From Nitratidesulfovibrio vulgaris str. Hildenborough (GTDB taxonomy: Bacteria; Desulfobacterota; Desulfovibrionia; Desulfovibrionales; Desulfovibrionaceae), in the NCBI RefSeq assembly GCF_000195755.1, contig NC_005863.1, forward strand, positions 30,001-62,000: DNA of 32,000 nt. The letters run 5' to 3'. Shown piece after piece: positions 1 through 13,986 of the stretch (the stretch's first letter is position 1; the number at the start of each line of letters is the position of its first letter). Below the pieces are notes generated by a model. That model made no database searches, was not told where the DNA came from, and saw only the letters and a program-made list of their open reading frames with translations. A program made the position numbers and the translations under genes.

Positions 1-1241
1 CATCTTGCCCGCCCGGTCATGCATTCCGTGATGGCCGACGTCGGTCGAACGGCGCGCGGGCGTGCGCCCCTGCCACGGGCGGCTGCTCTGCGGGAGCATT
101 CCGGCGTGGATGGTGGCGGGCAGGTGTTCGGCGAAGAGCATGTCGCCATCGCCAGCCACGGCGAGGGTGCAGTCGATGACGTTGACCAGTTCACGCACGT
201 TACCGGGCCACGGATGGGCGAGAAGCCTCGCCCTGAACTCCGCCGACATCTGCCAGACCTTGCCGCCGTTGGATTCGGCCCGCGACTGGAGCAGGTGTTC
301 GGCTATCTCGATGATGTCCAGACCGCGTTCGCGCAACGGCGGCAGCAGCACGCGCATGGTGCTGATGCGGTACAGCAGGTCGTCGCGGAACGTGCCCTCG
401 CGCACCATCTCCTGAAGGTCCTTGTTGGTGGCCGCCACCAGCCTGAAGTCGCTCGACTCTTCACTGCCGCCACCCACCGGGCGATAGCGCCTCTCCTGCA
501 ACACGCGCAGGAACTTCTTCTGGAGCGACATGGGCAGTTCGCTGACCTCATCGAGGAAGAGCGTGCCGCCGTCAGCCTGCCTGATGAGGCCCACCCGCGA
601 TTTGGCCGCCCCGGTGAACGCCCCCTGCGAGTAGCCGAAGAGCAGGCTCTCCACGAGGTGTTCGGGCAGCGAGGCGCAGTCCACGGTGATGAGCGGGCCG
701 CCCCGGCGCTGGCTCATGCGGTGGATGGCGCGGGCGAAGAGTTCCTTGCCCGTGCCCGTCTCGCCTTGCAGCAGCACGTTCACGTCGGCATTGGACGAGC
801 GGGCGATGGTCTCGAACTGGGCACGCAACGCGGCGGACTGCCGAAGATGCCGAAGTCGCGCAAGTCCGGCCCTTCGGCCCCGTTGCCGCCGAAGGAGGGC
901 AGCCGCTCGAGCAGCGTCGTGATGGCGCGCGGGGCCTTGCCCTTGGGCATGTAGTTGAGTGCGCCGCTCAGCAGGGCCGCCTTGCCACGCTCGGGGTTGT
1001 ACCGTTCGGCCACGACGACCACCTGCGGGGCCGCCTGTGTGGAGCGCAGCCTCGGGATGCCTTCGAGCGCGTTGTCCATGCCCTCTTCAAGGACGACAAG
1101 CTGGCACGACGACGCGCGGCAATGCCTGATGCCGTCCTCAAGCGATGAGACGACCTTGAGGCTATGCCCGCCATCGGCGAACAGGCGCGAAAGATGCATG
1201 TACAGATCAGGCTGGTGCCCGATGAGCAGTACGTTGGCCAT
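1..1241 (-). pseudogene. sigma-54-dependent response-regulator-type activator (NtrC/AtoC/PrsR-like enhancer-binding protein); reading frame broken near nt 836-842; C-terminal HTH lies beyond the window start
   Basis: ATG 1241 follows an AAGGAA RBS and opens a CheY-like receiver (MANVLLIGHQ...NYMPKG) that runs into a stop at 780. A different minus-strand frame, open from about 838 to nt 1, reads SAALRAQFETIARSSNADVNVLLQGETGTGKELFARAIH...GYSQGAFTGAAK...TLFLDEVSEL...WPGNVRELVNVI. These are the Walker A, GAFTGA loop, Walker B and sensor regions of sigma-54 AAA+ activators. The frames abut at GIFGS/SAAL, as if one nucleotide were missing. This frame is absent from the ORF track because it has no stop inside the window. 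Confidence 0.7.
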
Positions 1242-1586
1242 GAAGCGTTCCTTTGCGTCACTCTCCATGTCAGGCGATGAAGGTGTGCGTTGGCGCGGAA
1301 CAGATTTGTGGGATAGTATAGTCATGGACTATGCAGCATATCCTATTAGAATGTTGATGCAGATAGTTTTATTGTTTTAATGCTATGGAATCATTGCGCA
1401 ATAGGTTAGTTTATTTTTAGTGGGCAGCCTGAAGATACATTATTTATATTCAAGTGGATTATATGAACGTATGCATGTCGTCGATCTGCGTTCTCATGAT
1501 GCGAATGTTGTATTGAAAATGCAGTCTATATAAGGTGAATACGTGTGAGCACAGCTTGTAGGGTGACACTGCAAATGGGGGTTGTT

Positions 1587-1997
1587 ATGCTTCAAGGAAT
1601 AATGTCAGGACGTATATCTTCTCGCAGTTCTAAGGCGCAGGACCGGAGGGACGCGCACCGTATCGAACTGATGAGCCCCTTCATTGTCTCTGCGACGTTC
1701 GACTCTGCGCATAGCCATCTGTGTCTTGCCCGCAACGTAGGCGTCGGTGGCCTGTTGCTGGAGTTCCAGACCGAAAGCGAGTTGTCCGGTGTCTCCGATG
1801 GATTCCGTTGCGTGCTCACGGATATGATGCCGGAAGGCTATCATACTATGCAGGATGTCCATTGTTCCGTGGAATGGCTGTACCGCAAGTTCGTCGGTGT
1901 CGCATTCAGCAGACCTTTCTTCATGAACCATGATGCTCTTCTTGAATGGATGAAAAGGGTACGCATGTCCTACAGGCTTGTGGAGAATGCAGACTAG
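1587..1997 (+). CDS. single-domain PilZ protein (putative c-di-GMP receptor), motif 2 degenerate
   Basis: Lies within ORF 1545..1997. RRDAHR (RxxxR) is followed at PilZ spacing by NVGVGG (D/NxSxxG with Ser->Gly). The C-terminal strand VGVAFSRPF resembles the other two PilZ ORFs here. ATG 1587 is preceded by GGGGG. The start is uncertain (GTG 1545, ATG 1575, 1587 or 1602). Confidence 0.6.
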   Translation: MLQGIMSGRISSRSSKAQDRRDAHRIELMSPFIVSATFDSAHSHLCLARNVGVGGLLLEFQTESELSGVSDGFRCVLTDMMPEGYHTMQDVHCSVEWLYRKFVGVAFSRPFFMNHDALLEWMKRVRMSYRLVENAD

Positions 1998-2056
1998 GGC
2001 ATCGCTCGGCGGTGCATACCCTGTATTGAACGCCATGAGTCATAGACAAACGAGGC

Positions 2057-2107
2057 GGAACATGAAGGCGTCTTCGCACGGCCTTCATGTTCCGTCTTGT
2101 TGTTGTG
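2057..2107. terminator. intrinsic terminator hairpin between convergent PilZ genes (probably bidirectional)
   Basis: Perfect 13-bp stem GGAACATGAAGGC / GCCTTCATGTTCC (2057-2069 / 2081-2093) with an 11-nt loop, followed by GTCTTGTTGTTGTG on the plus strand. On the minus strand the hairpin is followed by GCCTCGTTTGTCTATG. Confidence 0.6.
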
Positions 2108-2117
2108 ACGCAGAGCG

Positions 2118-2477
2118 TCAATAGTCTTGCGGATAGTATCCCTGCTGCTTGTAGTCGCCTTGCTGGTAGTAGTTCTTCATGTCCTCGTAGCTATGCAGTA
2201 AAGGGCCGGAGAACGATACGCCAACCTCCTTGCCGTAGCTCCACACTACTGAATAGTAGTGGTCGTGCAGAAAAGCAGGCTTGTAGTATTCTTCCTTGAC
2301 CTTGCCGTAGCTGCCGTAGCGCATGTCAGGGTCGTAGTCGCCTTGCAGTTGCAGACGCGCCCCACCCTGACTGATGTCCAGAAGCCTTGCGTAGTACTCT
2401 TCGCCGTTTATCTGGACGCTGCAATCATAGGCATAACCCTTCAGGTCAAGCCTCTGGTAGTTTCTGCGTTCTTGCAT
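2118..2477 (-). CDS. single-domain PilZ protein (c-di-GMP receptor), extremely tyrosine-rich with a YYQQGDYKQQGYYPQDY tail
   Basis: ATG 2477 is preceded by GGAGG. Canonical PilZ motifs RRNYQR (RxxxR) and DISQGG (DxSxxG) are present at the correct spacing. The upstream 107 codons of the 226-aa track ORF (2118..2798) have no RBS and a junk-like composition. 119 aa, 20 of them Tyr (hand count). Confidence 0.8.
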   Translation of the reverse strand: MQERRNYQRLDLKGYAYDCSVQINGEEYYARLLDISQGGARLQLQGDYDPDMRYGSYGKVKEEYYKPAFLHDHYYSVVWSYGKEVGVSFSGPLLHSYEDMKNYYQQGDYKQQGYYPQDY

Positions 2478-2760
2478 GGCTGTACCTCCAGCGTTGGTTG
2501 CGGTGCGCATCTGCCCACGGTCGCAGGCTTGCCGCGTCAAGGGCGTGCCTCGTTGCACGCAAGGGGAGGATGCAACTACCGTGCACGGCGCGCTTGCCGT
2601 GCCGGATGCGGTGCATTCCATAGAAAGTGTTTCATTTCGCATGGTTGTGAAGGCTGTGGGGGCGTGCTCGCTGAAGGATGCATAACTATCTGTTTTGCTA
2701 TCAGAAAGTCGATGCGAGGCGTTGTATCGGCGAATGGCAAGGCCTGTGACCTGCCGGAAG

Positions 2761-2797
2761 TGTTGCCTTATCCGACAACCTGTTGCGTTTTCCGACA
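2761..2797 (+). promoter_or_regulatory. two direct copies (20-bp period) of the 17-bp element TGTTGC(C/G)TT(A/T)TCCGACA; candidate enhancer-binding-protein site pair
   Basis: 2761-2777 is TGTTGCCTTATCCGACA and 2781-2797 is TGTTGCGTTTTCCGACA. Each differs at one position from the copy at 6809-6825. They lie in the non-coding spacer between the PilZ gene (start 2477) and the sigma-54 promoter at 3255. Confidence 0.45.
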
Positions 2798-3254
2798 TCG
2801 CCAGACGCCATCAGGCTATGCTGCGCCATGCCACGCCTGACCGGCGCCTGTCCGACGCCTGTCCCGTCATGGGCCCTTGCCGGACTCGTAAGGGGCCCAT
2901 GGCAGACCCGACTCCGTGCCCGCTTCATGCCGATGGCGCGCGGCGTTTCGCCCCGCCGCACGTCGTGCATCTGCATGATGCCACCCGCGTTTACCGCCAC
3001 CCTCAACGGTCTTGCCGACGCCACGCCACGTCTCGTGTGGGCTACCTGCGTCCCTATGCACGTGTCGCGGGCATTCGTCCCTCGCACGTCTGCGGGCGAT
3101 GGCTATCGCACGGACATGGTGAGGCCGTGCGGCGGGTCGCGTCGGGGTGCGCGCCTGCCGCGCACGGTTGCACCCCGTACTTGTAAAGGACGCAATCGTG
3201 GATGTTTCAGGGCTTTTTCCCTGAACTGCCGTAGTTATTGAAGCTTTTATAATA

Positions 3255-3270
3255 TGGAGTGCTACTTGCA
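3255..3270 (+). promoter_or_regulatory. sigma-54 (-24/-12) promoter for the PEP-CTERM gene 3321..4022
   Basis: TGGAGTGCTACTTGCA has GG and GC separated by exactly 10 nt, as in the consensus TGGCAC-N5-TTGCW. It ends 51 nt upstream of ATG 3321. An inverted repeat GTGCGCG-N5-CGCGCAC at 3147-3165 lies about 100 nt upstream. Confidence 0.65.
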
Positions 3271-3320
3271 AAAAATGCGTGAATAAACGCATACCAGTTC
3301 CGTCACTTCAGGAGGTTCTT

Positions 3321-4022
3321 ATGCGAGTGGCACGTTTGGCAGCGGCTTTGGCTCTGGTTCTGGCATTGGCATCCATCGGCAACGCGGCGACGATGGAGAT
3401 CTTCGTGCGTCCGGAAGGGGACGCCGTGGGGGGGCAGGAACGCTATGGATACGGTTCCCCCTGGTATCAACTCGACCGTGATGCCACGGCGAACCCCAAC
3501 GCGGTCTATCACTGGTATTCTGATGGGAGCGGCGCGGCGCGGTGGACGTTCCTCCAGTTCGACCTCTCGGACCTTGCCGGCCTGGCTGACGCGGTGACCG
3601 GTGCGACGTTCAACTTCAATCTGCTGCCCGACGGCTGGGGAGAAGGCACACGCGGCAACCTCAATCACCTTTCCAATGCAGCCACGGCGAACGGACAGGC
3701 GACCCAGGGGCTTGGCGGCGACCAGCCTGTGGGCAGCGTGACGTCGGCCACGATCCTTGGCTGGAACCATTTCGACGTGACAGAGTACATCAAGGCCGAC
3801 CTCGCGGCGGGGTTCTCATGGTCGGTGTTCTCGTTCAATCAGGTGGGCTATGCGGGGATGTTCTTCAGCAGCGGCGAGACCGAAGAGCGCTCGTACCTGC
3901 AGGTCACCTACAACGGCGGCACCGTCGACCCCAACCTGCCCACGCCCGAACCTTCTTCGGTGGTGCTGATGCTGCTTGGCGCGGCGGGTCTTCTCGCCAT
4001 GCGTCGCAAGGGCGTCATGTAG
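3321..4022 (+). CDS. PEP-CTERM sorting-domain protein with a DNRLRE/CBM96-like N-terminal domain
   Basis: ATG 3321 follows GGAGG. Signal peptide MRVARLAAALALVLALASIGNA. C-terminus PTPEPSSVVLMLLGAAGLLAMRRKGVM has the PEP motif, a TM helix and a basic cluster. The core ARWTFLQFDLSDLAGL..VTGATFNFNL resembles DNRLRE-type domains (from memory, not searched). Confidence 0.9.
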   Translation: MRVARLAAALALVLALASIGNAATMEIFVRPEGDAVGGQERYGYGSPWYQLDRDATANPNAVYHWYSDGSGAARWTFLQFDLSDLAGLADAVTGATFNFNLLPDGWGEGTRGNLNHLSNAATANGQATQGLGGDQPVGSVTSATILGWNHFDVTEYIKADLAAGFSWSVFSFNQVGYAGMFFSSGETEERSYLQVTYNGGTVDPNLPTPEPSSVVLMLLGAAGLLAMRRKGVM

Positions 4023-4070
4023 CACGAGGCGTTGCCTCCATCGCATCCTACATCGTCTGACGGGGAAACA

Positions 4071-4106
4071 GGGGCGGTACACGCAGGTGTGCCGCCCCTT
4101 CCTGTC
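4071..4106 (+). terminator. stem-loop downstream of the PEP-CTERM gene (weak U-tract)
   Basis: GGGGCGGTACAC-GCAG-GTGTGCCGCCCC (4071-4098) forms a 12-bp stem with one G:U pair, followed by TTCCTGTC. It lies 49 nt after stop 4022. Confidence 0.5.
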
Positions 4107-4289
4107 GCTGCCGTGCGGCAGTGAGCGGCTTTGGCGGAGGGTTCGCCCGCTTCGGCAGGGCAGTGTGCACCGTCGGGCCGAACTTGCACACGCAGGCTCG
4201 TCGCCCCTTCCTGTGGCTGCATGCAGCCAGTGGGCGGTGTGCGCGGAGGTTCGCCCGCTTCGGCAGGGGGCAGTGTGCATCGTCGGGCC
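4079..4289. repeat. two tandem copies of a ~109-110-bp non-coding unit
   Basis: Unit A (4079-4179) and unit B (4188-4289) both run from ACACGCAGG to CGTCGGGCC. They share the blocks CGCCCCTTCCTGT(C/G)GCTGC and GGAGG(G)TTCGCCCGCTTCGGCAGGG(GG)CAGTGTGCA(C/T)CGTCGGGCC. Each unit has an internal palindrome at about the equivalent place but with a different sequence: CTGCCGTGCGGCAG at 4108-4121 and GGCTGCATGCAGCC at 4215-4228. Confidence 0.75.
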
Positions 4290-4644
4290 ACGTCCGGCAC
4301 ACTTCGTGTTCCGCCTTCTCCTCCGCTTCCGTGCAGGCAGCCAGCGAAGACCGTGGGCCGGTGCGATGCGGGGGCGCGCTGCACTCGCGCCCACTGTGGA
4401 CGGCCCTCTGGATGTCTCCCCCGTCTGTCGGGAGCGAGAGGTGGCGCGTCGTGCCGGGCCCTCTCGCCACAAGCTGCGCATGTCGGGCGGCAGATGCGTC
4501 GCGTGCCCCGTGTGGTGTGTCGGCCCGGGTTCGGCCCCTGTGCGGCCCCTGTTCGACCTGAAGGCGGCCATGCGGGCGGCATCCCGGTTGTGGGCGCAGG
4601 CGTCGTTCCACCCCATAGCCACTCCCTCGGTGTGCCTCCGTGCC

Positions 4645-4687
4645 CCGCACACGAAGAGGCCGACCTCCACGTGGTGAAGGCCGGCCT
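4645..4687 (-). terminator. stem-loop downstream of the minus-strand PEP-CTERM gene 4717..5583
   Basis: The minus strand reads AGGCCGGCCTTCAC-CAC-GTGGAGGTCGGCCT, a 14-bp stem including two G:U pairs (plus-strand 4657-4687), followed by CTTCGTGTG. It starts 30 nt after the stop codon at 4717-4719. Confidence 0.5.
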
Positions 4688-4716
4688 GTTGTATCGTCAG
4701 GAACGAAGAGACAGGA

Positions 4717-5583
4717 CTAGGCGGTGCGCCGTGCGCGCCGCATCATCATGCCCAGTCCGCCAAGACCCATCAGCATCAGCACTGCCGACGCCGGTTCGGG
4801 GGTGGGCAGGGCGGTGATGGAGAGCAGGGTCTGGTGGGTCGTGGTGACGCCCTCGCTGGTCAGCCAGCCCACGGCATCGGCCGGGAGGCCAAGCAGGGTG
4901 CGGTAGGCCAGCGGAATGGGCGAGAACGACTTGGTGAAGTCCATCACGTAGTCGATGCCGTAGAAGTGGAAGGTCTCCTGCGTGACTTCGGGGTTCATGA
5001 GCACGAACACGTCCTGCTGTGTGCTGCCGGTGTTCGGGGTCTCGAAGAACTTGAAGTCCAGCGTGGTGGAGAACACGGGCAGCGACGTCGCCCCCGGAAG
5101 CTGCGGGATGAGCTGCAGGATGGCGCGTGCCGTGCCACTTTGCAGGGTGATGCTGTCGCCGGCAATGGCCTTGTTGCTGTGAGACAGCACAAGTCCGTTC
5201 ACGGCTGCGCCACCCGTGATCAGGGTACCGCCCACAGTGGGGGCGATGGAGATGGAACTGGTGGTGGCGCCGTTGTGGAAGACGTAGCCACTGCGGTTCG
5301 AGTATGTGTAGTCGCCCCACCGGAGGGTCGAGAAGCCGGGGGTGGTGACGGGGGCGGGCAGCATGACCCCGCCGTCGAAGAGGTAGGTGAGGCTCTTGCT
5401 GCCGATACCGGTGATGCCGTTGTTGGGGTCACCGGGGACGTTGGTGTCGTTGCGCGAGTTGGTCCACTCAACGAAGGCCCCGTCCACAGTGTATGTCCAT
5501 GAGGGGACGACCGCCGCCGATGCCGCCGTCTGCAAGAGCAGCGGGAAGAGCAGCGTGAGTGCGATGAGTGCGAGGCGTTTCAT
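4717..5583 (-). CDS. PEP-CTERM sorting-domain protein, paralog A (possibly the THxN-type PEP-CTERM family)
   Basis: ATG 5583 follows AGGAG. Signal peptide MKRLALIALTLLFPLLLQTAASA. C-terminus LPTPEPASAVLMLMGLGGLGMMMRRARRTA. Alignable along its full length with 5708..6568 (LPVFSTxLDFxFFETPN, DVFVLxNPEVTxETFHFYGxDYV). An HxN motif is present (LSHSN). Confidence 0.9.
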   Translation of the reverse strand: MKRLALIALTLLFPLLLQTAASAAVVPSWTYTVDGAFVEWTNSRNDTNVPGDPNNGITGIGSKSLTYLFDGGVMLPAPVTTPGFSTLRWGDYTYSNRSGYVFHNGATTSSISIAPTVGGTLITGGAAVNGLVLSHSNKAIAGDSITLQSGTARAILQLIPQLPGATSLPVFSTTLDFKFFETPNTGSTQQDVFVLMNPEVTQETFHFYGIDYVMDFTKSFSPIPLAYRTLLGLPADAVGWLTSEGVTTTHQTLLSITALPTPEPASAVLMLMGLGGLGMMMRRARRTA

Positions 5584-5610
5584 GACGAGTCTCCTGTGTC
5601 TTGTAGCTGC

Positions 5611-5640
5611 TTGCAGGAGCCTTGGTGAAGGCTCCTGCAA
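5611..5640 (-). promoter_or_regulatory. perfect 11-bp-stem hairpin between the tandem PEP-CTERM paralogs (attenuator, partial terminator or processing site)
   Basis: TTGCAGGAGCC-TTGGTGAA-GGCTCCTGCAA. No U-tract follows on the minus strand. No sigma-54 promoter was found between the hairpin and ATG 5583. Confidence 0.5.
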
Positions 5641-5663
5641 GTGTGTGGTCGTATTCGGGGCGG

Positions 5664-5680
5664 TGTAAGGTTCTCCGACA
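5664..5680 (+). promoter_or_regulatory. degenerate copy of the 17-bp TGTnnn-N5-CCGACA element
   Basis: TGTAAGGTTCTCCGACA. Its extension TTCTCCGACAGG (5671-5682) nearly matches the 12-mer TTTTCCGACAGG at 6816-6827 and 11052-11063. It lies in the spacer between the two PEP-CTERM paralogs. Confidence 0.35.
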
Positions 5681-5707
5681 GGGGTCGCTGCCGGGGGGGG
5701 CGGTGCG

Positions 5708-6568
5708 TTATGCCTGTGACCGGCGGCGCAGTCCGAAGAGGCCGAGCAGTCCGAGGCCCATCAGGATGATGGAGGTCGGTTCGGGGGTGGGCAGGGCGCG
5801 GATGCTGATCAGCGTATCGAAGGCGTTGTAGGCGTTCTCGGAGGTGATCCAGCCGACGGAACCGACGGGCAGGTTCAGCAGGGCGCGGTAGGTTTCGGGG
5901 ATGAGGCCGAACGAGCCGCCGAAGCTGAACACGTAGTCGACGCCGTAGAAGTGGAAGGTCTCTTCGGTCACTTCGGGGTTCAGCAGTACGAACACGTCGC
6001 TCTCGGTGTTCACGTTGCCGTTGGGGGTCTCGAAGAACAGGAAGTCGAGCTTGGTCGAGAAGACGGGCAGCGGCGGGTTGCCGGAGGGGGCGAGCGTCAG
6101 CACCGAGCGCACGACGCCGGACTTAAGCTGGATGGAGCCGCTGAGGATGGGCTGGTTGTAGTGGTACAGTTCCATGCCAAGCGACGTGGGGCCGTCGGTG
6201 ATCATGGTGCCACTGCGGGCGTTGATGCCGATGGAGCTGAGGTTGGCGCCGGGAATCTGGCTGTATACGGGGCCGGGGCCGCTCCATACGTAGTCGCCCC
6301 ACGCGATATGGCGATAACCCTTGGCCGACGTGCCGGGAGGAACCGGAACACCGCCGTCGAGGTTGTAGAACAGTTCTTCAGGCTCGAAGCCGGTGATGCC
6401 CTGGGCAGGCGTGTCTAACGTGCCGCTTGTGCCCACGGTGGTCTTCCAGCTGACGAAGATGCCGTCAACGGTGTAGTCCCATGCGGGGATGGGGGCTGCC
6501 AGTGCGTTGACCACCATCAGGGCGGTCAGGACCACGGTACCGAGAAGGGAAGAGAGCAGACGCTTCAT
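5708..6568 (-). CDS. PEP-CTERM sorting-domain protein, paralog B
   Basis: ATG 6568 follows AGGAGAAAAACC. Signal peptide MKRLLSSLLGTVVLTALMVVNALA. C-terminus LPTPEPTSIILMGLGLLGLFGLRRRSQA. HxN motif LYHYN. Confidence 0.9.
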   Translation of the reverse strand: MKRLLSSLLGTVVLTALMVVNALAAPIPAWDYTVDGIFVSWKTTVGTSGTLDTPAQGITGFEPEELFYNLDGGVPVPPGTSAKGYRHIAWGDYVWSGPGPVYSQIPGANLSSIGINARSGTMITDGPTSLGMELYHYNQPILSGSIQLKSGVVRSVLTLAPSGNPPLPVFSTKLDFLFFETPNGNVNTESDVFVLLNPEVTEETFHFYGVDYVFSFGGSFGLIPETYRALLNLPVGSVGWITSENAYNAFDTLISIRALPTPEPTSIILMGLGLLGLFGLRRRSQA

Positions 6569-6626
6569 GGTTTTTCTCCTCATTTCATGAGGTTAAAAAT
6601 TGCGTGAGCAAAGTTGCATGGTATTA

Positions 6627-6642
6627 AGCAATGACTGTTCCA
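6627..6642 (-). promoter_or_regulatory. sigma-54 (-24/-12) promoter for PEP-CTERM paralog B
   Basis: The minus strand reads TGGAACAGTCATTGCT, with GG and GC separated by exactly 10 nt. It ends 59 nt upstream of ATG 6568. An AT-rich tract (6644-6700) lies between the promoter and the upstream 17-bp elements, which would suit DNA bending. Confidence 0.65.
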
Positions 6643-6719
6643 ACAGTGCTTTTAATATATATTCAAGTGTGTTGGATGATGTTTTGAGCCTTGATACCCC
6701 TCTCGGCACAGGCTGGCGT

Positions 6720-6736
6720 TGTCAACCTATCCGACA
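6720..6736 (+). promoter_or_regulatory. 17-bp TGTnnn-N5-CCGACA element, proximal site upstream of the 6627-6642 promoter
   Basis: TGTCAACCTATCCGACA, about 80-110 nt upstream of the -24 element on the minus strand. Confidence 0.4.
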
Positions 6737-6808
6737 GATTCGGGGGGCGGCGCGGGTGACCGGGGCGAAAGCGGCGCGGGCCTTCCATTCGCGCTGATGA
6801 AGGGGGGG

Positions 6809-6825
6809 TGTTGCCTTTTCCGACA
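6809..6825 (+). promoter_or_regulatory. 17-bp TGTnnn-N5-CCGACA element, distal site upstream of the 6627-6642 promoter
   Basis: TGTTGCCTTTTCCGACA matches the copies at 2761 and 2781 at 16 of 17 positions. The 12-mer TTTTCCGACAGG is identical to 11052-11063. Confidence 0.5.
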
Positions 6826-7253
6826 GGGTGCCGGAGAGCGTGCACGGGGACGCAGGAGGGGCCGCGGGTCTGGACACCACGTGAGAGGTGGGCGTCAGGT
6901 GAGAGGCAGGCTGAAGAAGGCGGGCGAAAGTGAAGGGGGGGGCGATGTGCCCCCCCGTGTCATTGCATGCGGCGTCTCCCGCGGCCATTCCCGTGGCGCC
7001 TCGCCTCGTGGCGTCCTGCGCCTTCCTGCGCCCTCCTGTGCAGTCCGGCGTTGTTTGGCACTGTCGGGGGCGTCCGGGGCCGACCTCGTTCCCGGTTGTC
7101 CGGGGCCTCTCCGCCTGACCGGGGCTTCTCGGCTGCCCCGTACTGCCCCGGTGTCCGCCTTGGTCGGGCTGTGGGGCCGTCCTGCGACGTCTTCGGCACA
7201 TCCGCCTCATGCACCGCCTTCGAGGCCATCCGCCGTCACGCGCCTTCTCGCCC

Positions 7254-10223
7254 TCACTCGGCAGGCAGCAGGAAGTCCGACAGCGGACGACGGAACGTGC
7301 CATGCCGGATGGGTGCGGCGACACCGGCACGGAACATCATGACGGGCAGTCGTCCCTTGGGGTGGGGCAGCACCTGTTCGAGAAGCGTCCACGCCTCTTC
7401 CAGCAGGCGCTGATGTGCGGTGTCCAGCGTCTGCGGGTCGCCCATGGCGAGGCGCAGGTGCAGCAGGGGCAGGGCCGCCAGCGGTTGCATGGCATAGCCC
7501 ATGTGTTCGAGGGCGCACCACGCCCGTTGCCACGCCATGCCCGCGCGGGCGATGTCCGTCTCCGTCTCGCCGTTGGCCAGCAGCAGCCCGATGCCGCCGC
7601 TTCGCAGCACGCCCATCGCCCCGTGCAGGGGCATGAGGCGCCCGAGGCCGAGGGCGTTGGCGATGCTCATGTTGCGCCACGGCCTCACGGCACGCAGGTA
7701 CAGTTCACCGGCGAGTCCCGCTTCGAGGTTCGCCAGCGGCAGTCCGTCGCCGTATGGCCCGTTCCCGGCGTGGCTGTGATGCCCTGCCTGCCCGGTGTGC
7801 CCCTGTTGCCCGACCTCTCCCTGTTGCTCGGCCTGCCCGTCGAAGCGGATGAAGCGCATGAGGTGTTCATGCATGTCGCGCCGTTCGACGCGCACCCTGT
7901 CGGCGAGGTAGACGGCCCGCGCAAGGGTCTTGCGCTGCGCCGCGTCCGTCGCCCACAGGAGGGTGGCGTCCTGTTCCTCGCTGACGAGGTGCTCGATGCG
8001 CTCGCACACCTCCACGGGCAGGGGGCGCGCGGCGTACATGCGGCGGTTGGTGTGCCTGCGCCACAGGGCGGCGGTCATGATCTCGTGCGAGGGCACGCCC
8101 AGCGGCGTGCAGTGCAGCGAGGCCACACGGTCGGGCTTCGTGGCGTCGGGAAAGAGCGAGAGCGTGGCATCGAGTCCCGCGCTGCCCGAGGCGTAGACGG
8201 CGTTCTGCACCGCGGCCCCGCAGGCCAGCAGCGAGGCCACATGGCGGTAGTCGAAGAACGAGCCGTCGGCCTGCCTGTCGAGATGGATGTGCAGCCCCGT
8301 GGCATGGGGGACGAAGCGCCACGGCTGCACGTTGTCGCCGGAGGGTGCCTGCATGGCGGCGCGGGCCACGTAGTGCAGGGTCTCGAGCGGGATGTCCTGC
8401 CGCAGTGCCACCACGTCGGGTTCTGGCGGGGGCGGCGTGCCGGTGCGCGGCGCACCCATGAAGAACCGGCGGGCGATGGCGAGCTTCAGCCGTTGCAGCG
8501 GCGAGCGCAGTCCCTTGCGGAGCCTGCCCCGCACATGACGGCCCGTGAGCGGGTCGAACTGCCTGAAGTACGGCACGGGGCGTATGCCCCGGCGGTGCAG
8601 CAGGATGCGCACGGCTTCGGTGGCGGCCATGCCCGCACAGAGATGGCAGGCGATGTCCAGCGACGGCCCCCGCCTGTCGTGCAGGCTGACGAAGCGCCTG
8701 TCCATGTAGCCGAGGTGCGCCGGGCGCGGGGCCAGCCCCATGCCGAAGCGCAGGTAGCCCTCCATGGGGGGCGTGTCGTCGTCGATGCCGAAGTAGCTGT
8801 CGAAGTTCATGCCCCCCGGCATGAAGACGAGCAGGGCGCACGAATAGCCGAGCGGCCCGGCGGTTATGACCGGAATGCCCAGTTCGAGCGCGCGGTTGAA
8901 GAGCCTGCGGCGGATGTCGAGGGCGAAGAAGTCGATGCCGTCCACCAGCAGGTCGACATCCTTGAGGAAGGCGTCGATGGTCTCGGCGGCGACGCCCTCG
9001 GGGAAGGAGCGGATGTCGAGGAACGGGTTCACGCTGAGGGCGCGTTCGGTCATGACGTCGAGCTTGCCGCGCCCGAAGCTGGCGATGCTGGCCCCGTACT
9101 GCCGGTTGAGGTTCACCGGCGAATAGGCGTCGAAGTCGGCGAGGTTGAAGTTGCCGATGCCCGTGCGCGCCAGCGTCATCAGATGGATGCCTCCCACGCC
9201 GCCAAGCCCCGCGATGGCGACCCGCGAGCGCAAGAGTCTGCGTTGTCCCGCGTAGTCCACGAGGCCGAGGTTGCGGCTGAAGGCGATGTCGGTATAGGCG
9301 TCGCGCGTCTCGAGTTTGAGCATGTCCAGCGGTACGCCGCCGGGGGTCTCGGGGTGCACCGGGTTGGTCGAGAAGTGGTTGAACACCGCGCGGTGGTAGA
9401 TGGTCTCGATGTGGTCGCGCTGGGGTTCGGCCAGATGGTCGAGCAGTTCGGGGCGCTGCTGCAACAGATAATAGGCGGTGTACGGTTCCAGTGGCCTGTC
9501 GCGGCGCACGGGGTTCTCGGAGGTCTCGGTCTCGTCGCTGTTCATGCGGGCGAAGAAGGCGAAGAGGTTGGTCTCGAAGTCCTCCTCGTCGCCGTACTTC
9601 TCCTGCAACTCGTCCATGGCCTCGTGCAGGTCGATGCGCAGGGCCACCGCCGGGGCGTCCACCGTGTCGTAGTGGCGCACCTCGCCGAAGGGTTTGAAAA
9701 GGAAGATGTCGGTGTAGAACTTCACATGCTTCGGGTTCACGGTGACGAGGATGTCGTCCACCTCCGACATCATGGAGTACTGGAACATGGCCTTGGCGAG
9801 AAAGACCATGAGGTTCGTCCACCGGCGGCTGTACTGCGTGGCAAGCGCGCCCACCTCCACCACGTTGCGCCCCTGGGCGCGCAGGGCGTCCACCTCGGGC
9901 TTGTAGAGGGTGTCCATGGGCAGGCCGAACAGCCCGGAGTCGGGGATGTGGGTCAGCGTGCACAGCACGTCGTGGTAGCTTTTGAAGATGAAGACCGAGG
10001 TGGCGGGCAGAATGCTCCAGACATTGTAATACATTCTTGATGGATGCGGCTTGAGATAGCCCGAGCGGATGTACTCTTCGTACACGAGGCGGAAGGCCCG
10101 TGTATACTCGTCGGGCGTTTCCGCGATCTTGATGGCGGGCCTGTCCAGCGCCCCCAGCTTGTTCTGCAGGAGCGAGGAACGCTTGATGCGGATGGTACGG
10201 CGCTTGTCGGCGATGGCGAGCAT
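7254..10223 (-). CDS. 989-aa three-domain protein: FeeM-like N-acyl amino acid synthase (GNAT-fold) + ThiF/MoeB-type E1-like adenylyltransferase + tandem nitroreductase-like module (Rv1355c-like C-terminal two-thirds)
   Basis: ATG 10223 with GAGG upstream. aa ~30-205 (nt ~9609-10136): FRLVYEEYIRSGYL...GLFGLPMD...VVEVGALAT...ILVTVNPKHVKFY, as in FeeM/autoinducer-synthase-like acyltransferases. aa ~315-545 (nt ~8589-9281): VAIAGLGGVGGIHLMTLARTGIGNFNLADFDAYSPVNLNRQ (ThiF glycine loop and NLNRQ). aa ~605-985 (nt ~7269-8411): AMQAPSGDNVQPWRF and LWRRHTNRRMY (nitroreductase-fold signatures in two halves). A Gln/Gly/His low-complexity insert lies at aa 796-826. Confidence 0.9.
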   Translation of the reverse strand: MLAIADKRRTIRIKRSSLLQNKLGALDRPAIKIAETPDEYTRAFRLVYEEYIRSGYLKPHPSRMYYNVWSILPATSVFIFKSYHDVLCTLTHIPDSGLFGLPMDTLYKPEVDALRAQGRNVVEVGALATQYSRRWTNLMVFLAKAMFQYSMMSEVDDILVTVNPKHVKFYTDIFLFKPFGEVRHYDTVDAPAVALRIDLHEAMDELQEKYGDEEDFETNLFAFFARMNSDETETSENPVRRDRPLEPYTAYYLLQQRPELLDHLAEPQRDHIETIYHRAVFNHFSTNPVHPETPGGVPLDMLKLETRDAYTDIAFSRNLGLVDYAGQRRLLRSRVAIAGLGGVGGIHLMTLARTGIGNFNLADFDAYSPVNLNRQYGASIASFGRGKLDVMTERALSVNPFLDIRSFPEGVAAETIDAFLKDVDLLVDGIDFFALDIRRRLFNRALELGIPVITAGPLGYSCALLVFMPGGMNFDSYFGIDDDTPPMEGYLRFGMGLAPRPAHLGYMDRRFVSLHDRRGPSLDIACHLCAGMAATEAVRILLHRRGIRPVPYFRQFDPLTGRHVRGRLRKGLRSPLQRLKLAIARRFFMGAPRTGTPPPPEPDVVALRQDIPLETLHYVARAAMQAPSGDNVQPWRFVPHATGLHIHLDRQADGSFFDYRHVASLLACGAAVQNAVYASGSAGLDATLSLFPDATKPDRVASLHCTPLGVPSHEIMTAALWRRHTNRRMYAARPLPVEVCERIEHLVSEEQDATLLWATDAAQRKTLARAVYLADRVRVERRDMHEHLMRFIRFDGQAEQQGEVGQQGHTGQAGHHSHAGNGPYGDGLPLANLEAGLAGELYLRAVRPWRNMSIANALGLGRLMPLHGAMGVLRSGGIGLLLANGETETDIARAGMAWQRAWCALEHMGYAMQPLAALPLLHLRLAMGDPQTLDTAHQRLLEEAWTLLEQVLPHPKGRLPVMMFRAGVAAPIRHGTFRRPLSDFLLPAE

Positions 10224-10270
10224 GGTGACCTCGCGGAGGATGCTTCACGGTTGGGCAGCGTACCGGGTGA

Positions 10271-10286
10271 AGCCAGTTTCGTGCCA
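10271..10286 (-). promoter_or_regulatory. sigma-54 (-24/-12) promoter for the three-domain enzyme gene
   Basis: The minus strand reads TGGCACGAAACTGGCT, with GG and GC separated by exactly 10 nt. It has the same TGGCAC...TGGCT style as the prsT promoter. It ends 48 nt upstream of ATG 10223. Confidence 0.65.
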
Positions 10287-10307
10287 GCAACGTCAAGTGC
10301 GAGGTTT

Positions 10308-10336
10308 TTCGACAGTAAGGTGTCGGAATGCCGACC
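10308..10336. promoter_or_regulatory. cluster of TGTCGG/CCGACA half-sites between two divergent sigma-54 promoters
   Basis: TTCGACA (10308-10314), 6 nt, TGTCGG (10321-10326), AATG, CCGACC (10331-10336). The half-sites match the 17-bp element, but the spacings (N6 and N4) differ from the N5 seen elsewhere. Confidence 0.45.
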
Positions 10337-10377
10337 TTCGATTTCTGTAACTAGCTGTTTTTGCTCAAGACGTTTTT

Positions 10378-10393
10378 TGGCATGAATGTGGCA
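10378..10393 (+). promoter_or_regulatory. sigma-54 (-24/-12) promoter upstream of the third PilZ gene
   Basis: TGGCATGAATGTGGCA has GG and GC separated by exactly 10 nt, with a TGGCA -12 element. It ends 117 nt upstream of GTG 10510. Confidence 0.5.
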
Positions 10394-10509
10394 AGTGCTG
10401 GCTTTATGAAGCGTCTTTAAGGTTTGTTGTCTCGAGTACGACCCAAGGCACATGCGAGACCTGCATCGAATGACCTGTACGGCCACTGGACGCGGATGGA
10501 GGTGCGGAG

Positions 10510-11073
10510 GTGAAGAATGTTGCAGTCGACACACAGGCTGGTGCACGTCTTGCCGATGTAGCACAATGCCTTGAATGCCAGCCGGGACATCTCGCTTCGG
10601 GCATTCTCAATTCATTTTTCGAATGCAATGCAGTACACGGCGATGCAACGACGTCTGAAAAGCGCAGGCTTGGCAGACGGGCGACGCACATTGCAGCCGT
10701 CACCTGCGCATGTGATGGCGAGAACGAGAGCAGGTGCACACCTGCCATCATCAGTAACATCTCCCTTTGCGGTGTGCGGGCCGAGGTACCGCATTCGTCA
10801 TCCGGCTATGGTAGCATCATGCGCAAGGTCGGTGCATTCGAACTGATGTTCACGTTTCCTTCAGAAGACGAAGTGGTGACGTTCAAGTGCCGCATGAAGT
10901 ATGTGCTCGACGGCGAGCGTACGGTGCTTGGCGGGGCCTTCGTAAGTCCTGATATCGTTTCGCTTCGTGCGCTGGTGCGCTTTCTGTTGTCACCGCAGGC
11001 CCGGCCCGAGTCGTCGCAAACGCCTTGTCGGACAGGCTTACAGGTGTCGGGTTTTCCGACAGGCACGGCCTAG
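10510..11073 (+). CDS. PilZ-domain protein (putative c-di-GMP receptor) with a Cys-containing N-terminal extension
   Basis: RRLGRR (RxxxR) and NISLCG (NxSxxG) are present at PilZ spacing, with a C-terminal LGGAFVSPD strand. GTG 10510 overlaps a GGAGG. The start is uncertain and the true N-terminus could be further downstream. Confidence 0.55.
   Translation: MKNVAVDTQAGARLADVAQCLECQPGHLASGILNSFFECNAVHGDATTSEKRRLGRRATHIAAVTCACDGENESRCTPAIISNISLCGVRAEVPHSSSGYGSIMRKVGAFELMFTFPSEDEVVTFKCRMKYVLDGERTVLGGAFVSPDIVSLRALVRFLLSPQARPESSQTPCRTGLQVSGFPTGTA
11026..11061. promoter_or_regulatory. two adjacent 17-bp elements, one a perfect palindrome; candidate upstream activating sequence for the prsT-eps operon promoter
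   Basis: 11026-11042 is TGTCGGACAGGCTTACA (right half degenerate). 11045-11061 is TGTCGGGTTTTCCGACA (perfect 6-N5-6 inverted repeat). Centres are 19 nt apart. They lie about 210-245 nt upstream of the sigma-54 promoter at 11270 and overlap the 3' end of the PilZ ORF. Confidence 0.55.
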
Positions 11074-11269
11074 GGGCCGCACGAAGCCCCCCATCCGTCC
11101 TTCATGTGCCGTTCGTGTATACAACCCGTCCGTGAAATCAGGACGCCCGTCCCGTTTATCATGCGTGTCCTGATAAGCCGGACGGTTCAGGGGGGCTGCA
11201 AGACTCTAGACATTCTGTAACGTGTCTTCTTTGCACGCGTGGACGCGCCGGGGCCGAAGCCTCTGCGTG

Positions 11270-11285
11270 TGGCACGGTATTGGCT
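11270..11285 (+). promoter_or_regulatory. sigma-54 (-24/-12) promoter of the prsT-exopolysaccharide operon
   Basis: TGGCACGGTATTGGCT has a perfect TGGCAC -24 element and GG and GC separated by exactly 10 nt. It ends 41 nt upstream of GTG 11326, with RBS ACGGAGG at 11314-11320. Confidence 0.75.
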
Positions 11286-11325
11286 CTATACGGGGGAACA
11301 TCCGGCCCGAACAACGGAGGTTCCC

Positions 11326-13986
11326 GTGTGGAATAAGCTGTGCCTTTCCGTCTGCTGTGCGATTCTCGTTCTCACTGCCTCGTCATGCGGGGCGGACAAG
11401 TCATCGGACTTCCTCACCGAAGGGCGCAAGCTCATGGACGCGGGCAATGCCGCGGGTGCGGTGGTGCTGTTCCGCAATGCACTTGAGAAGACCCCCGCCG
11501 ATTATACACTGCACCTTGAACTGGGCAGGGCCTATATCGCCCTTGGCAAGCTCGACCTCGCCGAGGGCGAACTGCAGAAGTGCCTGCGCCAGCAACCCGA
11601 CGACCCGCCGCTGAACCTCGCCCTCGGCGAACTCTACGTGGCACGCAACGAACCGGCCAAGGCGCTGCCGCATCTGGCCCGCTACGAACAGGGCGCGGGC
11701 GAGACGGCCGTCTCGCGTGAACTGGCGGGGCTGGCCCATGCGCAGGCGCGGTCGCCGGAAGAGGCGCGCGCGGCCCTCGAACGCTCCATCGCCCTCGACG
11801 CCAAGCGCGTCACGCCACGTCTGGCGCTGGCGCGGCTGTTCCTCTACAGGGGCGACCTCAAGCGCGCCGTCGCCACCGTGGACGAGGCACTCGCCGTCGC
11901 CCCCGAAGACAGGTTGGCCCTCACGCTGCGTGGCGACCTGCTGCTGCGGCAGGGCGACGCGCCCGGTGCGTTGGTGGTGTTCCGCAAGGTCGCCAGCCTG
12001 GCCCCCGGCGACGACTATGCCCGCTACATGTCGGGCCTTCTGGCCCTGCAGACCGGCGACGAGGCCGGGGCCGCCGCCGTTGCGGCATCCATGAACAAGG
12101 ACTTCAAGGACAACTCGCTGACCCTGATGCTGGACGGCGCCCTCGCCGCGCAACGCAAGGACTACACGCTTGCGGCGTCGCTGTTCCAGCGCAGCGTGGC
12201 CATGCGTCCAAGCCTCGAGGGCTACTACAAGCTTGGCATGGCCCTCTACGGCAAGGGCGACCTCGAGACGGCCCTCAGCCAGTTCAACCGCGTGCTCGAA
12301 GCCACACCGGAATACGATGCGGCCCGCCGCATGACCGTCACCATCCTGCTTGCGCAACGGCGAGTGGCCGAGGCACGGCAGGAGGCGCAGAAGCTCGTGG
12401 AGCGCAACCCCTCCGACGCCGCGGCGCACTTCATGCTGGCCTCGGCGCAGATGGCGGCGGGCGACAGGGCCGGGGCCGAACGCTCGTTCGAGGCGGGGCT
12501 TGCCCTGCAACCGGCCCATGTGCCCGCACTCCTGCAACTCAGCCGCCTGAAGCAGGCCGACGGACGGCCCGACGAGGCGCTTGAAGACCTCAAGGCCGCC
12601 GTTGTCGCCGCACCCGACGACCTCGCCGTGCGCAACGCCCTCTTCGCCTACCATCTGGGACGGGGCGACACGGGCAAGGGCGTCCAGGTCGTCCTCGAGG
12701 GCCTGCGCGGCACTCCGCAGGACGCCATCCTCTACACCATGCTGGTGCCCGTCTACGTCAACATGGGCGACGAGGCGAAGGGCCTCGACGCGGTGGCGCA
12801 GGCGCACAGGGCCGACCCCGACTTCCCCGACGCCTACCTTGCCGGGCTGCGCCTCCACGCCGGGGCCGGCAGGGCGGAACAGGCCCTTGCCGAGAGCGAG
12901 GCCTATCTCGCCCGCAAGCCCGATGCTCCGGGCTTCCTGCTGGCGTCGGGCGCCCTGCTCGACCTTCTTGGCAGGACGGCGGAGGCCGACGCCCGCTTCG
13001 ACAAGGCGCTGGCCGCCAACGACCCCCGCGTCTCGTTCGCGGTGGCCGAACGCGCCGTGGCCTCGGGGCAGGACGAGAAGGCCCGCCGCGTTCTCGAAGA
13101 GGCCCTGCGGCAGCACGACCAGACGACCCTGCGCGACGCGCTCGCCATCCAGCTTGCGCGCATGGGCAAGCCCGACGACGCCCTCGCCCTCTATACCGCC
13201 ATCGAGACGCAACGCCCTCGCGAGGCGCTGCTGGGCCGCTACCGGCTGCTGACGCACCTCGACCGGCATCAGGAGGCGGCGGACACGGCACGTGAACTGG
13301 GACGGCGTGAGAGCGCGTCGCCGCTGCCCGTCCTGCTCGAAGCCGCCGCGTTCGAGCGCATGGGGCAGCGCCCGCAGGGCGTGGCCCTGCTCGAGGCGGC
13401 CCACCGCAAGAGCGGCGACCCCGAACTGCTGCTGGCCATGGGCGGTATGCTCGAACGCAACGGCGACGAGGCCCGTGCCGAGACCTGCTACCGCGACGCC
13501 CTCAAGGCGCGGCCCGACCATGTGCCCACCCTGCTGGCCTACGCGGGGCTGGACATGCGCCGCAAGGAGTACGCCAAGGCCACGGCCCTCTACGAGAAGG
13601 CCGTGAGCATCGCCCCCGACGACGTGGTGGCGCTGAACAACCTCGCCATGGCCTACCTCGAGAAGGCCAGCCGTGATGCGACGCCGCAGAAGGCCCTGCG
13701 TCTGGCGTTGCAGGCGTACACCCGCGCTCCCGACAACCCCGCCGTGCTCGACACCCTCGGCGTGTGCATGATGGCCAACGGACGTGCCGACGACGCAGCG
13801 CGCGCCTTCGGTCGTGCCGTGGTCGCCGTGCCCGGCAACCCGTCGCTGCGCTACCGCCATGCCGAGGCGCTCTTCAAGGCGGGCCGCAAGGACATGGCGG
13901 CTGAAGAACTGCGCGCGGCCCTTCAGACGCCCGACTTCCCCGAGGCGGCCAAGGCACGCGACCTGTTGCGCAAGACCGGCAACTGA
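11326..13986 (+). CDS. prsT: PEP-CTERM system TPR-repeat lipoprotein (PrsT family, TIGR02917-like)
   Basis: GTG 11326 follows GGAGG and gives (M)WNKLCLSVCCAILVLTASSCGADK, a lipoprotein-type signal with Cys. About 886 aa of back-to-back TPR repeats (AxxxLxxALxxxPxxxxAxxxLGxxY pattern throughout). The size and its position as first gene of the locus match PrsT. The track ORF start at 11239 lies upstream of the promoter. Confidence 0.85.
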   Translation: MWNKLCLSVCCAILVLTASSCGADKSSDFLTEGRKLMDAGNAAGAVVLFRNALEKTPADYTLHLELGRAYIALGKLDLAEGELQKCLRQQPDDPPLNLALGELYVARNEPAKALPHLARYEQGAGETAVSRELAGLAHAQARSPEEARAALERSIALDAKRVTPRLALARLFLYRGDLKRAVATVDEALAVAPEDRLALTLRGDLLLRQGDAPGALVVFRKVASLAPGDDYARYMSGLLALQTGDEAGAAAVAASMNKDFKDNSLTLMLDGALAAQRKDYTLAASLFQRSVAMRPSLEGYYKLGMALYGKGDLETALSQFNRVLEATPEYDAARRMTVTILLAQRRVAEARQEAQKLVERNPSDAAAHFMLASAQMAAGDRAGAERSFEAGLALQPAHVPALLQLSRLKQADGRPDEALEDLKAAVVAAPDDLAVRNALFAYHLGRGDTGKGVQVVLEGLRGTPQDAILYTMLVPVYVNMGDEAKGLDAVAQAHRADPDFPDAYLAGLRLHAGAGRAEQALAESEAYLARKPDAPGFLLASGALLDLLGRTAEADARFDKALAANDPRVSFAVAERAVASGQDEKARRVLEEALRQHDQTTLRDALAIQLARMGKPDDALALYTAIETQRPREALLGRYRLLTHLDRHQEAADTARELGRRESASPLPVLLEAAAFERMGQRPQGVALLEAAHRKSGDPELLLAMGGMLERNGDEARAETCYRDALKARPDHVPTLLAYAGLDMRRKEYAKATALYEKAVSIAPDDVVALNNLAMAYLEKASRDATPQKALRLALQAYTRAPDNPAVLDTLGVCMMANGRADDAARAFGRAVVAVPGNPSLRYRHAEALFKAGRKDMAAEELRAALQTPDFPEAAKARDLLRKTGN

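Follow-up and report, generated by a model that had tools for sequence, protein, structure and literature searches.

The 32,000-nucleotide stretch analyzed here (the window) comes from Nitratidesulfovibrio vulgaris Hildenborough and is identified by its sequence as part of the megaplasmid pDV1 of that strain, also known as Desulfovibrio vulgaris Hildenborough. Five motifs in the window are interpreted as -24/-12 promoters of the sigma-54 (RpoN) type, serving genes for PEP-CTERM cargo proteins, a fusion enzyme (DVUA0034), a PilZ-like protein (DVUA0035) and the prsT/exopolysaccharide (EPS) operon. Taken as a whole, with all five promoters placed in the regulon of the activator PrsR (DVUA0057), this explanation is the best that we can offer and, judged on sequence evidence, has a good chance of being correct. 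Control of the Hildenborough locus by sigma-54 and PrsR has been predicted since 2006, with refinements in 2011 and 2015 (PMC1569441, PMC3333781, PMC4641369), and is thus largely known. Promoters 1, 2 and 5 had already been described for pDV1, and those of DVUA0034 (P34) and DVUA0035 (P35) look unreported in the available portions of this literature. The additions made here are modest, consisting of DVUA0034 and DVUA0035 as probable regulon members and a variant at position -14.

Position, published status and scores of the five sites

A sequence-only reading of the stretch had proposed five sigma-54 promoters, each with GG and GC exactly 10 nt apart, and the coordinates, strands and spacing of all five 16-mers were verified. 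Every one lies in noncoding DNA and faces the adjacent gene. Site 1, TGGAGTGCTACTTGCA (3255 to 3270, plus strand), is the predicted promoter of DVUA0030 (P30), with a predicted start of transcription at ~3281, and site 2, TGGAACAGTCATTGCT (6627 to 6642, minus strand; predicted start ~6616), is that of DVUA0032-DVUA0031 (P32). Site 3, or P34, TGGCACGAAACTGGCT (10271 to 10286, minus strand; predicted start ~10260), and site 4, or P35, TGGCATGAATGTGGCA (10378 to 10393, plus strand; predicted start ~10404), are candidate promoters of DVUA0034 and DVUA0035, respectively. Site 5, or P36, TGGCACGGTATTGGCT (11270 to 11285, plus strand; predicted start ~11296), precedes the prsT/EPS operon DVUA0036-41. 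Each site had also been placed a short distance upstream of a start codon with a good ribosome-binding site, which measurement bore out: the gaps range from 40 to 116 nt (50, 58, 47, 116 and 40 nt for sites 1 to 5, the second being 43 nt if counted to the start of the longest open reading frame [ORF]), and each of the five target genes has a ribosome-binding site of the GGAGG/GAGG type. No sigma-70-like consensus promoter was found in the five target spacers. An Rfam scan of positions 1 to 12000 returned nothing with an E value below 0.4, indicating that no riboswitch or known small RNA lies behind the 116-nt leader of P35.

Kazakov 2015 (PMC4641369) lists 87 D. vulgaris sigma-54 promoters, three of which are sites 1, 2 and 5, assigned to DVUA0057. 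In Additional file 6 of that study, the entry for DVUA0030, TATGGAGTGCTACTTGCAA at -68, is site 1 verbatim; that for DVUA0032, GTTGGAACAGTCATTGCTT at -76, is site 2 verbatim; and that for DVUA0036, TGTGGCACGGTATTGGCTC at +29 relative to an older annotated start at 11239, is site 5 verbatim. All promoter and binding-site offsets published there land exactly on window coordinates. Three N. vulgaris plasmids carry all five 16-mers without change, and in an alignment of these plasmids site 1 forms a conserved island inside a very variable spacer, with 0 variable columns across 3251 to 3295 compared with 24 across 3150 to 3320. The broader claim of the sequence-only reading, that expression of essentially the whole window depends on RpoN, is an extrapolation, as the published operon comprises only DVUA0036-41 (Kazakov 2015, PMC4641369) and neither the PilZ gene DVUA0029 (2118 to 2477, minus strand; 119 amino acids in its RefSeq short form) nor an ORF at 1671 to 1997 has a sigma-54 site.

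Matches to the loose pattern TGG-N8-TKGCW are not rare in the window, at 7 compared with 4.8 expected, and a still looser form has 75. For scoring, two weight matrices were used: a generic RpoN matrix, and a second derived from 84 sigma-54 promoters published for D. vulgaris, with the three from the window left out. Using the generic matrix, the five sites (13.3, 16.3, 15.5, 14.5 and 15.9 bits for sites 1 to 5) outranked every other match on either strand of the window, the next best having 10.9 bits. Using the D. vulgaris matrix, the scores were 16.3, 20.1 (the best in the window), 11.5, 10.0 and 13.1 bits, and unrelated matches of 13.5, 12.9 and 10.4 bits fell among them. With the D. vulgaris matrix, the scores of 20.1, 16.3 and 13.1 bits are clear, and those of 11.5 and 10.0 bits lie within the chance range. 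The equal standing that the generic matrix gave to all five was dropped once the 84-promoter matrix showed sites 3 and 4 to be marginal; their low scores are due to the G at -14.

Chance was modeled by dinucleotide shuffling of the noncoding DNA in the window (3.6 kb), repeated 300 times. The shuffles yielded on average 0.94, 0.49, 0.21 and 0.05 matches at or above 10, 11.5, 13 and 16 bits, respectively, compared with 5, 4, 3 and 2 matches observed in the noncoding DNA at the same thresholds. The observed count was equaled in 1 of 300 shuffles at 10 bits and in none of the 300 at the other three thresholds, and the set of five sites is clearly non-random.

PrsR binding sites and the choice of activator

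In the mechanism proposed here, RNA polymerase carrying sigma-54 would read all five promoters, which would belong to the "PEP-CTERM box" regulon. PrsR, by analogy with its protein family, would bind 17-bp TGT-N11-ACA sites and open the closed sigma-54 complexes through DNA looping and ATP hydrolysis. For promoters 1, 2 and 5 these are established predictions, accompanied in the literature by in vitro PrsR binding nearby. We infer, especially for P34 and P35, that transcription depends on both RpoN and PrsR.

The DVUA0057 orthologue WP_011176635.1 scores 585.4 bits on the PrsR model TIGR02915 (cutoff, 502.6). Its gene lies at positions 63244 to 64674 of the record, near window coordinate 38,690 and thus ~6.7 kb beyond the window end, beside the exosortase gene. 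The 17-bp pattern TGT-N11-ACA occurs exactly seven times in the 32 kb, and all seven occurrences are published DVUA0057 sites, starting at 2761, 2781, 5664, 6720, 6809, 11026 and 11045; with a PrsR matrix whose training sites all lie outside the window, these seven take ranks 1 to 7. The pair TGTTGCCTTATCCGACA and TGTTGCGTTTTCCGACA (2761 to 2797; -560 and -540 in Kazakov 2015) lies 457 nt upstream of P30. Two sites at 6720 to 6736 and 6809 to 6825 (-168 and -257) lie upstream of P32, the nearer at a distance of 77 nt, and the pair TGTCGGACAGGCTTACA and TGTCGGGTTTTCCGACA (11026 to 11061; 22.0 and 15.5 bits; -213 and -194) lies 208 nt upstream of P36. The remaining site, at 5664 to 5680 (-97), is upstream of DVUA0031. 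Sites of the TGT-N11-ACA type are therefore found upstream of P30, P32 and P36, with a degenerate 12.6-bit site upstream of P35 and no properly spaced site for P34 in pDV1.

In the accessible data of Rajeev 2011 (PMC3333781), DNA affinity purification with microarray detection (DAP-chip) placed DVUA0057 peaks on the plasmid at DVUA0029, DVUA0031, DVUA0032, DVUA0036 and DVUA0089. Given that a pDV1 coordinate equals the window coordinate plus ~29,960, the peak at plasmid positions 32608 to 32837 falls on the PrsR pair at 2761 to 2797, that at 35556 to 35785 on the site at 5664 to 5680, that at 36644 to 36717 on the sites at 6720 to 6825, and that at 40961 to 41384 on the pair at 11026 to 11061.

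Between P34 and P35 a weak PrsR-like site, TGCGAGGTTTTTCGACA (10298 to 10314), lies 63 nt upstream of P35 and 11 nt from P34. It is the eighth-best match to the PrsR matrix in the 32 kb (12.6 bits; training minimum, 12.9), and its left half-site, TGTCGAAAAA, is conserved in an orthologous locus on a metagenome contig (L058). P34 and P35 might be served by this weak site, by the strong pair at 11026 to 11061, or by both. As the weak site is only 11 nt from P34, activation of this promoter would require a DNA loop to the strong pair, which lies ~740 bp upstream as P34 is oriented; long distances between activator site and promoter do occur in the regulon, as in the 457 nt for DVUA0030. A palindrome in the same spacer, TGTCGGAATGCCGAC (10321 to 10335), was rejected as a PrsR site since its spacer is one base short, it scores -0.8 bits and it is not conserved in L058.

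The sequence-only reading had assigned activation of all five promoters to the enhancer-binding protein encoded at positions 1 to 1241 (DVUA0024/25; minus strand, truncated by the window start). This is the sole sigma-54 activator gene inside the window, with REC, AAA+ and HTH parts; similar regulators lie 3 to 9 kb from the enzyme gene in loci L001 (46% identical), L004 and L006 (34 to 35%), and the regulon of DVUA0024/25 was left undefined in Kazakov 2015 (PMC4641369). However, a 1-nt deletion interrupts the gene: compared with N. vulgaris RCH1, the window lacks one base at ~836 to 838, leaving the receiver domain (frame 780 to 1328) and the AAA+ domain (frame 1 to 1086) in different frames, and DVUA0024/DVUA0025 is published as a frameshifted pseudogene in Hildenborough, unlike in RCH1 and DP4 (Kazakov 2015, PMC4641369). 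The intact RCH1 orthologue reaches 270.4 bits on TIGR02915, where the cutoff is 502.6, and so is not of the PrsR family. Promoters 1, 2 and 5 carry PrsR sites and, in the accessible data, DAP-chip peaks of DVUA0057, and the P34/P35 pair is retained in loci in whose flanks no DVUA0024-like regulator was detected (L002 and L003, 10 kb on each side; L058, 2.5 kb only). Activation of the five promoters by the DVUA0024/25 product is accordingly most improbable, and PrsR is the likely activator of promoters 1, 2 and 5.

The arrangement resembles the PEP-CTERM box of Haft 2006 (PMC1569441), in which proteobacterial PEP-CTERM genes are preceded by motif 1 (17 nt) and then by a sigma-54 motif 2, the two being separated by 62.8 ± 10.6 nt. 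That study ties the box to PrsK/PrsR/PrsT, with DVU_A0057 as PrsR and DVU_A0036 as PrsT. pDV1, too, encodes PrsR and PrsT, its cargo genes are preceded by a GG/GC promoter and an activator site of 17 nt, and the spacing fits at P32 (77 nt) and at P35, whose 63 nt is canonical. Departures from the Haft box are the much greater distances to P30 (457 nt) and P36 (208 nt), the presence of the box before noncargo genes as well (the prsT operon, the enzyme gene and the PilZ gene), and the degenerate form of the activator site at P34/P35. The DVUA0057 regulon of Kazakov 2015 and Rajeev 2011 shares the replicon, promoters 1, 2 and 5 and all seven sites with the one described here and differs, as far as the accessible tables go, in lacking DVUA0034 and DVUA0035. 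An experimental precedent for an RpoN-dependent PEP-CTERM gene is pepA of Aquincola tertiaricarbonis RN12, of a different phylum from the host of pDV1, which has a TGGCAC/CTGCTT promoter, a mapped start and a transcript that is lost in an rpoN1 mutant (PMC9850573).

A number of further features were observed around the PrsR sites. One of the DAP-chip peaks in the accessible data carries the name of DVUA0029, a gene for which no sigma-54 site was identified; a long upstream extension of the DVUA0029 ORF (2118 to 2798, minus strand) overlaps the PrsR sites at 2761 to 2797. Between the site at 5664 to 5680 and DVUA0031 there is no GG-N10-GC promoter, and a perfect 11-bp inverted repeat, TTGCAGGAGCC...GGCTCCTGCAA (~5610 to 5640, minus strand), lies between this site and the DVUA0031 start codon. 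The pair at 11026 to 11061 overlaps the 3' end of the DVUA0035 coding sequence, lying within its final ~50 nt, and in L058, where the PilZ protein is 43% identical, a PrsR pair (L058 positions 1646 to 1681) likewise lies inside the end of the PilZ gene.

Sites 3 and 4 in relatives and the base at -14

Locus L058 has the same gene order as pDV1, with the enzyme, PilZ and PrsT proteins 65%, 43% and 54% identical, respectively. The P34 16-mer is identical there and sits in a conserved island of 19/19 positions, and P35 has one mismatch; P34, P35 and the TGTCGAAAAA block are the only conserved islands of a spacer that otherwise cannot be aligned between L058 and pDV1. In L002 and L003, whose enzymes are 51 to 52% identical to that of pDV1, the same back-to-back pair is kept, the two sites standing out as conserved islands that flank a 43-bp indel, with TGGCATGATTCTGGCT facing the enzyme gene and TGGCACG(A/G)AATTAGCA facing the PilZ gene. 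A weaker pair is present in L001. Sigma-54-like sites were also found before a PilZ-enzyme operon in L004, L006 and L060 and directly before the enzyme gene in L061, where a strong pair of PrsR sites lies 130 nt upstream of the promoter-like site. In total, sites precede the orthologous genes in 9 of 14 full-length orthologous loci, the window included. The prsT gene is additionally preceded by a sigma-54 site in L005, L007 and L058; L006 has a similar site before a gene that was not confirmed as prsT. Sites of the form TGTAA(A/G)(C/T)TTTCCCGACA in L004 and L006 were not counted as binding sites for the enzyme gene, as they lie inside PilZ coding sequence and encode V(N/S)FPD. The proposal of five sigma-54 promoters is supported for three of them by published predictions (Kazakov 2015) and for P34 and P35, whose species-matrix scores are marginal, by conservation across genera. 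On this comparative evidence, DVUA0034 and DVUA0035 are probably additional members of the PrsR/sigma-54 regulon.

Several observations weigh against this reading. Sites 3 and 4 are absent from the list of 87 promoters in Kazakov 2015, and by species-matrix score (11.5 and 10.0 bits) each individually lies within the chance range. The spacer between DVUA0034 and DVUA0035 (10224 to 10509) has no TGT-N11-ACA, its PrsR-like site is both degenerate and close against P34, and none of the top 20 DVUA0057 DAP-chip peaks in the accessible data of Rajeev 2011 (PMC3333781) falls on this spacer. No convincing site was found before the enzyme gene in the orthologues L005, L007, L059, L062 and L063. For P36, the prsT gene of A. 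tertiaricarbonis is relevant, as its transcription seemed unaffected by rpoN1 disruption (PMC9850573), so that prsT promoters are not RpoN dependent everywhere; the predicted sigma-54 promoter of prsT in pDV1 differs in this respect from the apparent RpoN1 independence in Aquincola. The omission of sites 3 and 4 from the Kazakov list may reflect its requirement for conservation across ten genomes. DVUA0034 and DVUA0035 are not named in the accessible supplementary tables of that study or of Rajeev 2011.

In one alternative, sites 3 and 4 would resemble promoters by coincidence, with only promoters 1, 2 and 5 functional and DVUA0034 and DVUA0035 expressed from other promoters. Their scores are equaled in coding DNA, shuffling gives 0.5 to 0.9 such matches per 3.6 kb, G at -14 occurs in none of the 84 other published promoters, and the accessible published lists lack both sites. 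Against coincidence stand the occurrence of two correctly oriented matches in a single 286-bp spacer, in which no sigma-70-like promoter was found, and the same G at -14 in the published DVUA0036 promoter. Together with the near-perfect conservation of P34 and P35 in L058, L002 and L003 amid a diverged background, and with their recurrence before orthologous genes in 9 of 14 loci, this makes a chance origin distinctly unlikely.

It is also conceivable that P34 and P35 are genuine sigma-54 promoters that respond to an activator other than PrsR, either a DVUA0024/25-type regulator where this is intact or DVU0110. The spacer at 10224 to 10509 has no strong PrsR site and, in the accessible data, no top-20 DAP-chip peak; PrsR half-sites were not found in the corresponding spacer of L001 to L003, a DVUA0024-like regulator lies near the enzyme gene in some loci, and DVU0110 and DVUA0057 were given a common binding motif in Kazakov 2015 (PMC4641369). 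We consider this unlikely in view of the clear PrsR pair 130 nt upstream of the enzyme promoter in L061, the half-site common to pDV1 and L058 at the canonical Haft spacing of 59 to 63 nt upstream of P35, and the embedding of DVUA0034 and DVUA0035 in a PrsR-controlled locus. If both genes do belong to the PrsR regulon, a FeeM-ThiF-nitroreductase enzyme and signaling by cyclic di-GMP (c-di-GMP) would be linked to exosortase/EPS expression.

The unusual TGGC form of the -12 element, noted previously in three of the five sites, was upheld: TGGCAYG-N4-TGGCW occurs three times within 1 kb compared with 0.06 expected, for a pattern chosen after the sites had been seen, and among the other 84 promoters published for D. 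vulgaris none has G at -14 and 3 have a base other than T there; the published DVUA0036 promoter has the G. Across loci, promoters before cargo genes (in the window, DVUA0089, L002, L003, L006 and L058) have TGGAAY or TGGAGT at -24 and the consensus TTGCW at -12. Those before prsT, enzyme and PilZ genes have TGGCAYG at -24 and G, A or C at -14 (TGGC, TAGC or TCGC), a non-T base being present in 13 of 14 such sites from eight Desulfovibrionaceae loci (metagenome loci not included) and in all six further sites from L058, L060 and L061. G at -14 was rejected as a general trait of the PEP-CTERM box, as 30 of 41 box-associated sites across loci have T at this position, including nearly all those with a spacer of 53 to 96 nt. 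The one clear exception, with G at -14, precedes a PEP-CTERM cargo gene of Methylomonas subterranea (L038, 14093 to 14198) with a canonical box, where TGTCGACATTCTTTACA is followed by a 73-nt spacer and then by TGGCACGCTATTGGCT, the promoter 16-mer being one base off the pDV1 prsT promoter.

These patterns tentatively suggest two graded promoter designs in the PrsR/sigma-54 regulon of Desulfovibrionaceae, a possibility that we regard as doubtful at present. Cargo promoters would combine a deviant -24 element and a consensus -12 element, usually with a close PrsR site, and promoters of machinery and signaling genes would combine a consensus -24 element and a non-T base at -14 with distant or degenerate activator sites. 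A mere relaxation of constraint at -14 would account for the non-T bases equally well. Were the two designs real, genes could differ in activation threshold or be expressed in a set order, and a c-di-GMP receptor and an N-acyl-amino-acid/ThiF enzyme could come under exosortase control. The variant, which recurs in several loci not selected for promoters, could determine promoter strength or activator dependence. Klebsiella nifH-type promoters, with a weakened -12-proximal region, bind the sigma-54 holoenzyme weakly and depend strictly on a site-bound activator. The pDV1 variants are similar in that they lack the T-rich -14/-17 consensus and keep GG/GC intact, and the likeness of TGGC/TAGC to that type is a lead at the level of sequence only.

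Replicon, gene content and minor features

The stretch from 3000 to 11500 is 100% identical over 8.5 kb to plasmid pDEVAL01 (NC_017311.1) of N. vulgaris RCH1 and 98.6 to 99.1% identical to two further N. vulgaris plasmids. The replicon was assigned to pDV1 of Hildenborough because the 1-nt deletion in DVUA0024/25 matches the lesion reported in Kazakov 2015 for Hildenborough alone.

DVUA0030 (3321 to 4022, plus strand) encodes a CBM96-like cargo protein with a PEP-CTERM sorting domain (TIGR02595, 24.3 bits, cutoff 16; PF07589). DVUA0031 (4717 to 5583) and DVUA0032 (5708 to 6568), both on the minus strand with RefSeq starts, encode PEP-CTERM proteins of the THxN family, scoring 138 and 141 bits, respectively, on NF038125 (cutoff, 85). 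DVUA0034 (7254 to 10223, minus strand; 989 amino acids) is a fusion of a FeeM-like N-acyl amino acid synthase, a ThiF adenylyltransferase and a nitroreductase (PRK14852, 2397 bits; PF21926, PF00899 and PF00881), and was reported in one study to influence biofilm formation (PMC6170446). Shorter ThiF-nitroreductase homologues in Alphaproteobacteria (L014, L027, L030, L036 and L039) adjoin a divergent canonical PEP-CTERM box, and from these neighborhoods the enzyme family seems to be widely tied to exosortase systems.

DVUA0035 (10510 to 11073, plus strand; 187 amino acids) encodes a divergent PilZ-domain protein. It scores 15 bits on PF07238, under the cutoff of 22.5, with an alignment spanning positions 4 to 101 of the 102 in the profile, and it contains the motifs RRLGRR (RRxxxR) and NISLCG (NxSxxG). 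Homologues encoded at the corresponding position in L001 and L006 score 31 and 23 bits, respectively, and exceed the threshold, and "PilZ" appears a reasonable label for a protein that possibly binds c-di-GMP.

The prsT gene (DVUA0036; 11326 to 13986, plus strand; TIGR02917, 437 bits) opens a complete EPS/exosortase gene array of the XrtA type (11326 to 32000, plus strand), in which TIGR02917, TIGR03013, TIGR03027, TIGR03007, TIGR03018, TIGR03015, TIGR03016, TIGR03006 and TIGR03019 all matched above their own cutoffs; the exosortase and EpsI are annotated downstream in RefSeq.

A 694-bp GC-rich gap between the convergent DVUA0030 and DVUA0031 (4023 to 4716) has no coding signature, contains two copies of a ~85-bp direct repeat and is hypervariable among the three N. 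vulgaris plasmids, with 12.8 variable columns per 100 compared with 0.6 to 3.8 elsewhere. A sigma-54-like match of 12.9 bits (4293 to 4311, plus strand) lies inside it. Approximately 300 nt past the DVUA0034 stop codon, a G/C-rich stem, GGGGGGGCACATCGCCCCCCC (6936 to 6956, minus strand), is followed by a T-containing tail and is likely a terminator dividing DVUA0034 from the control region of DVUA0032.

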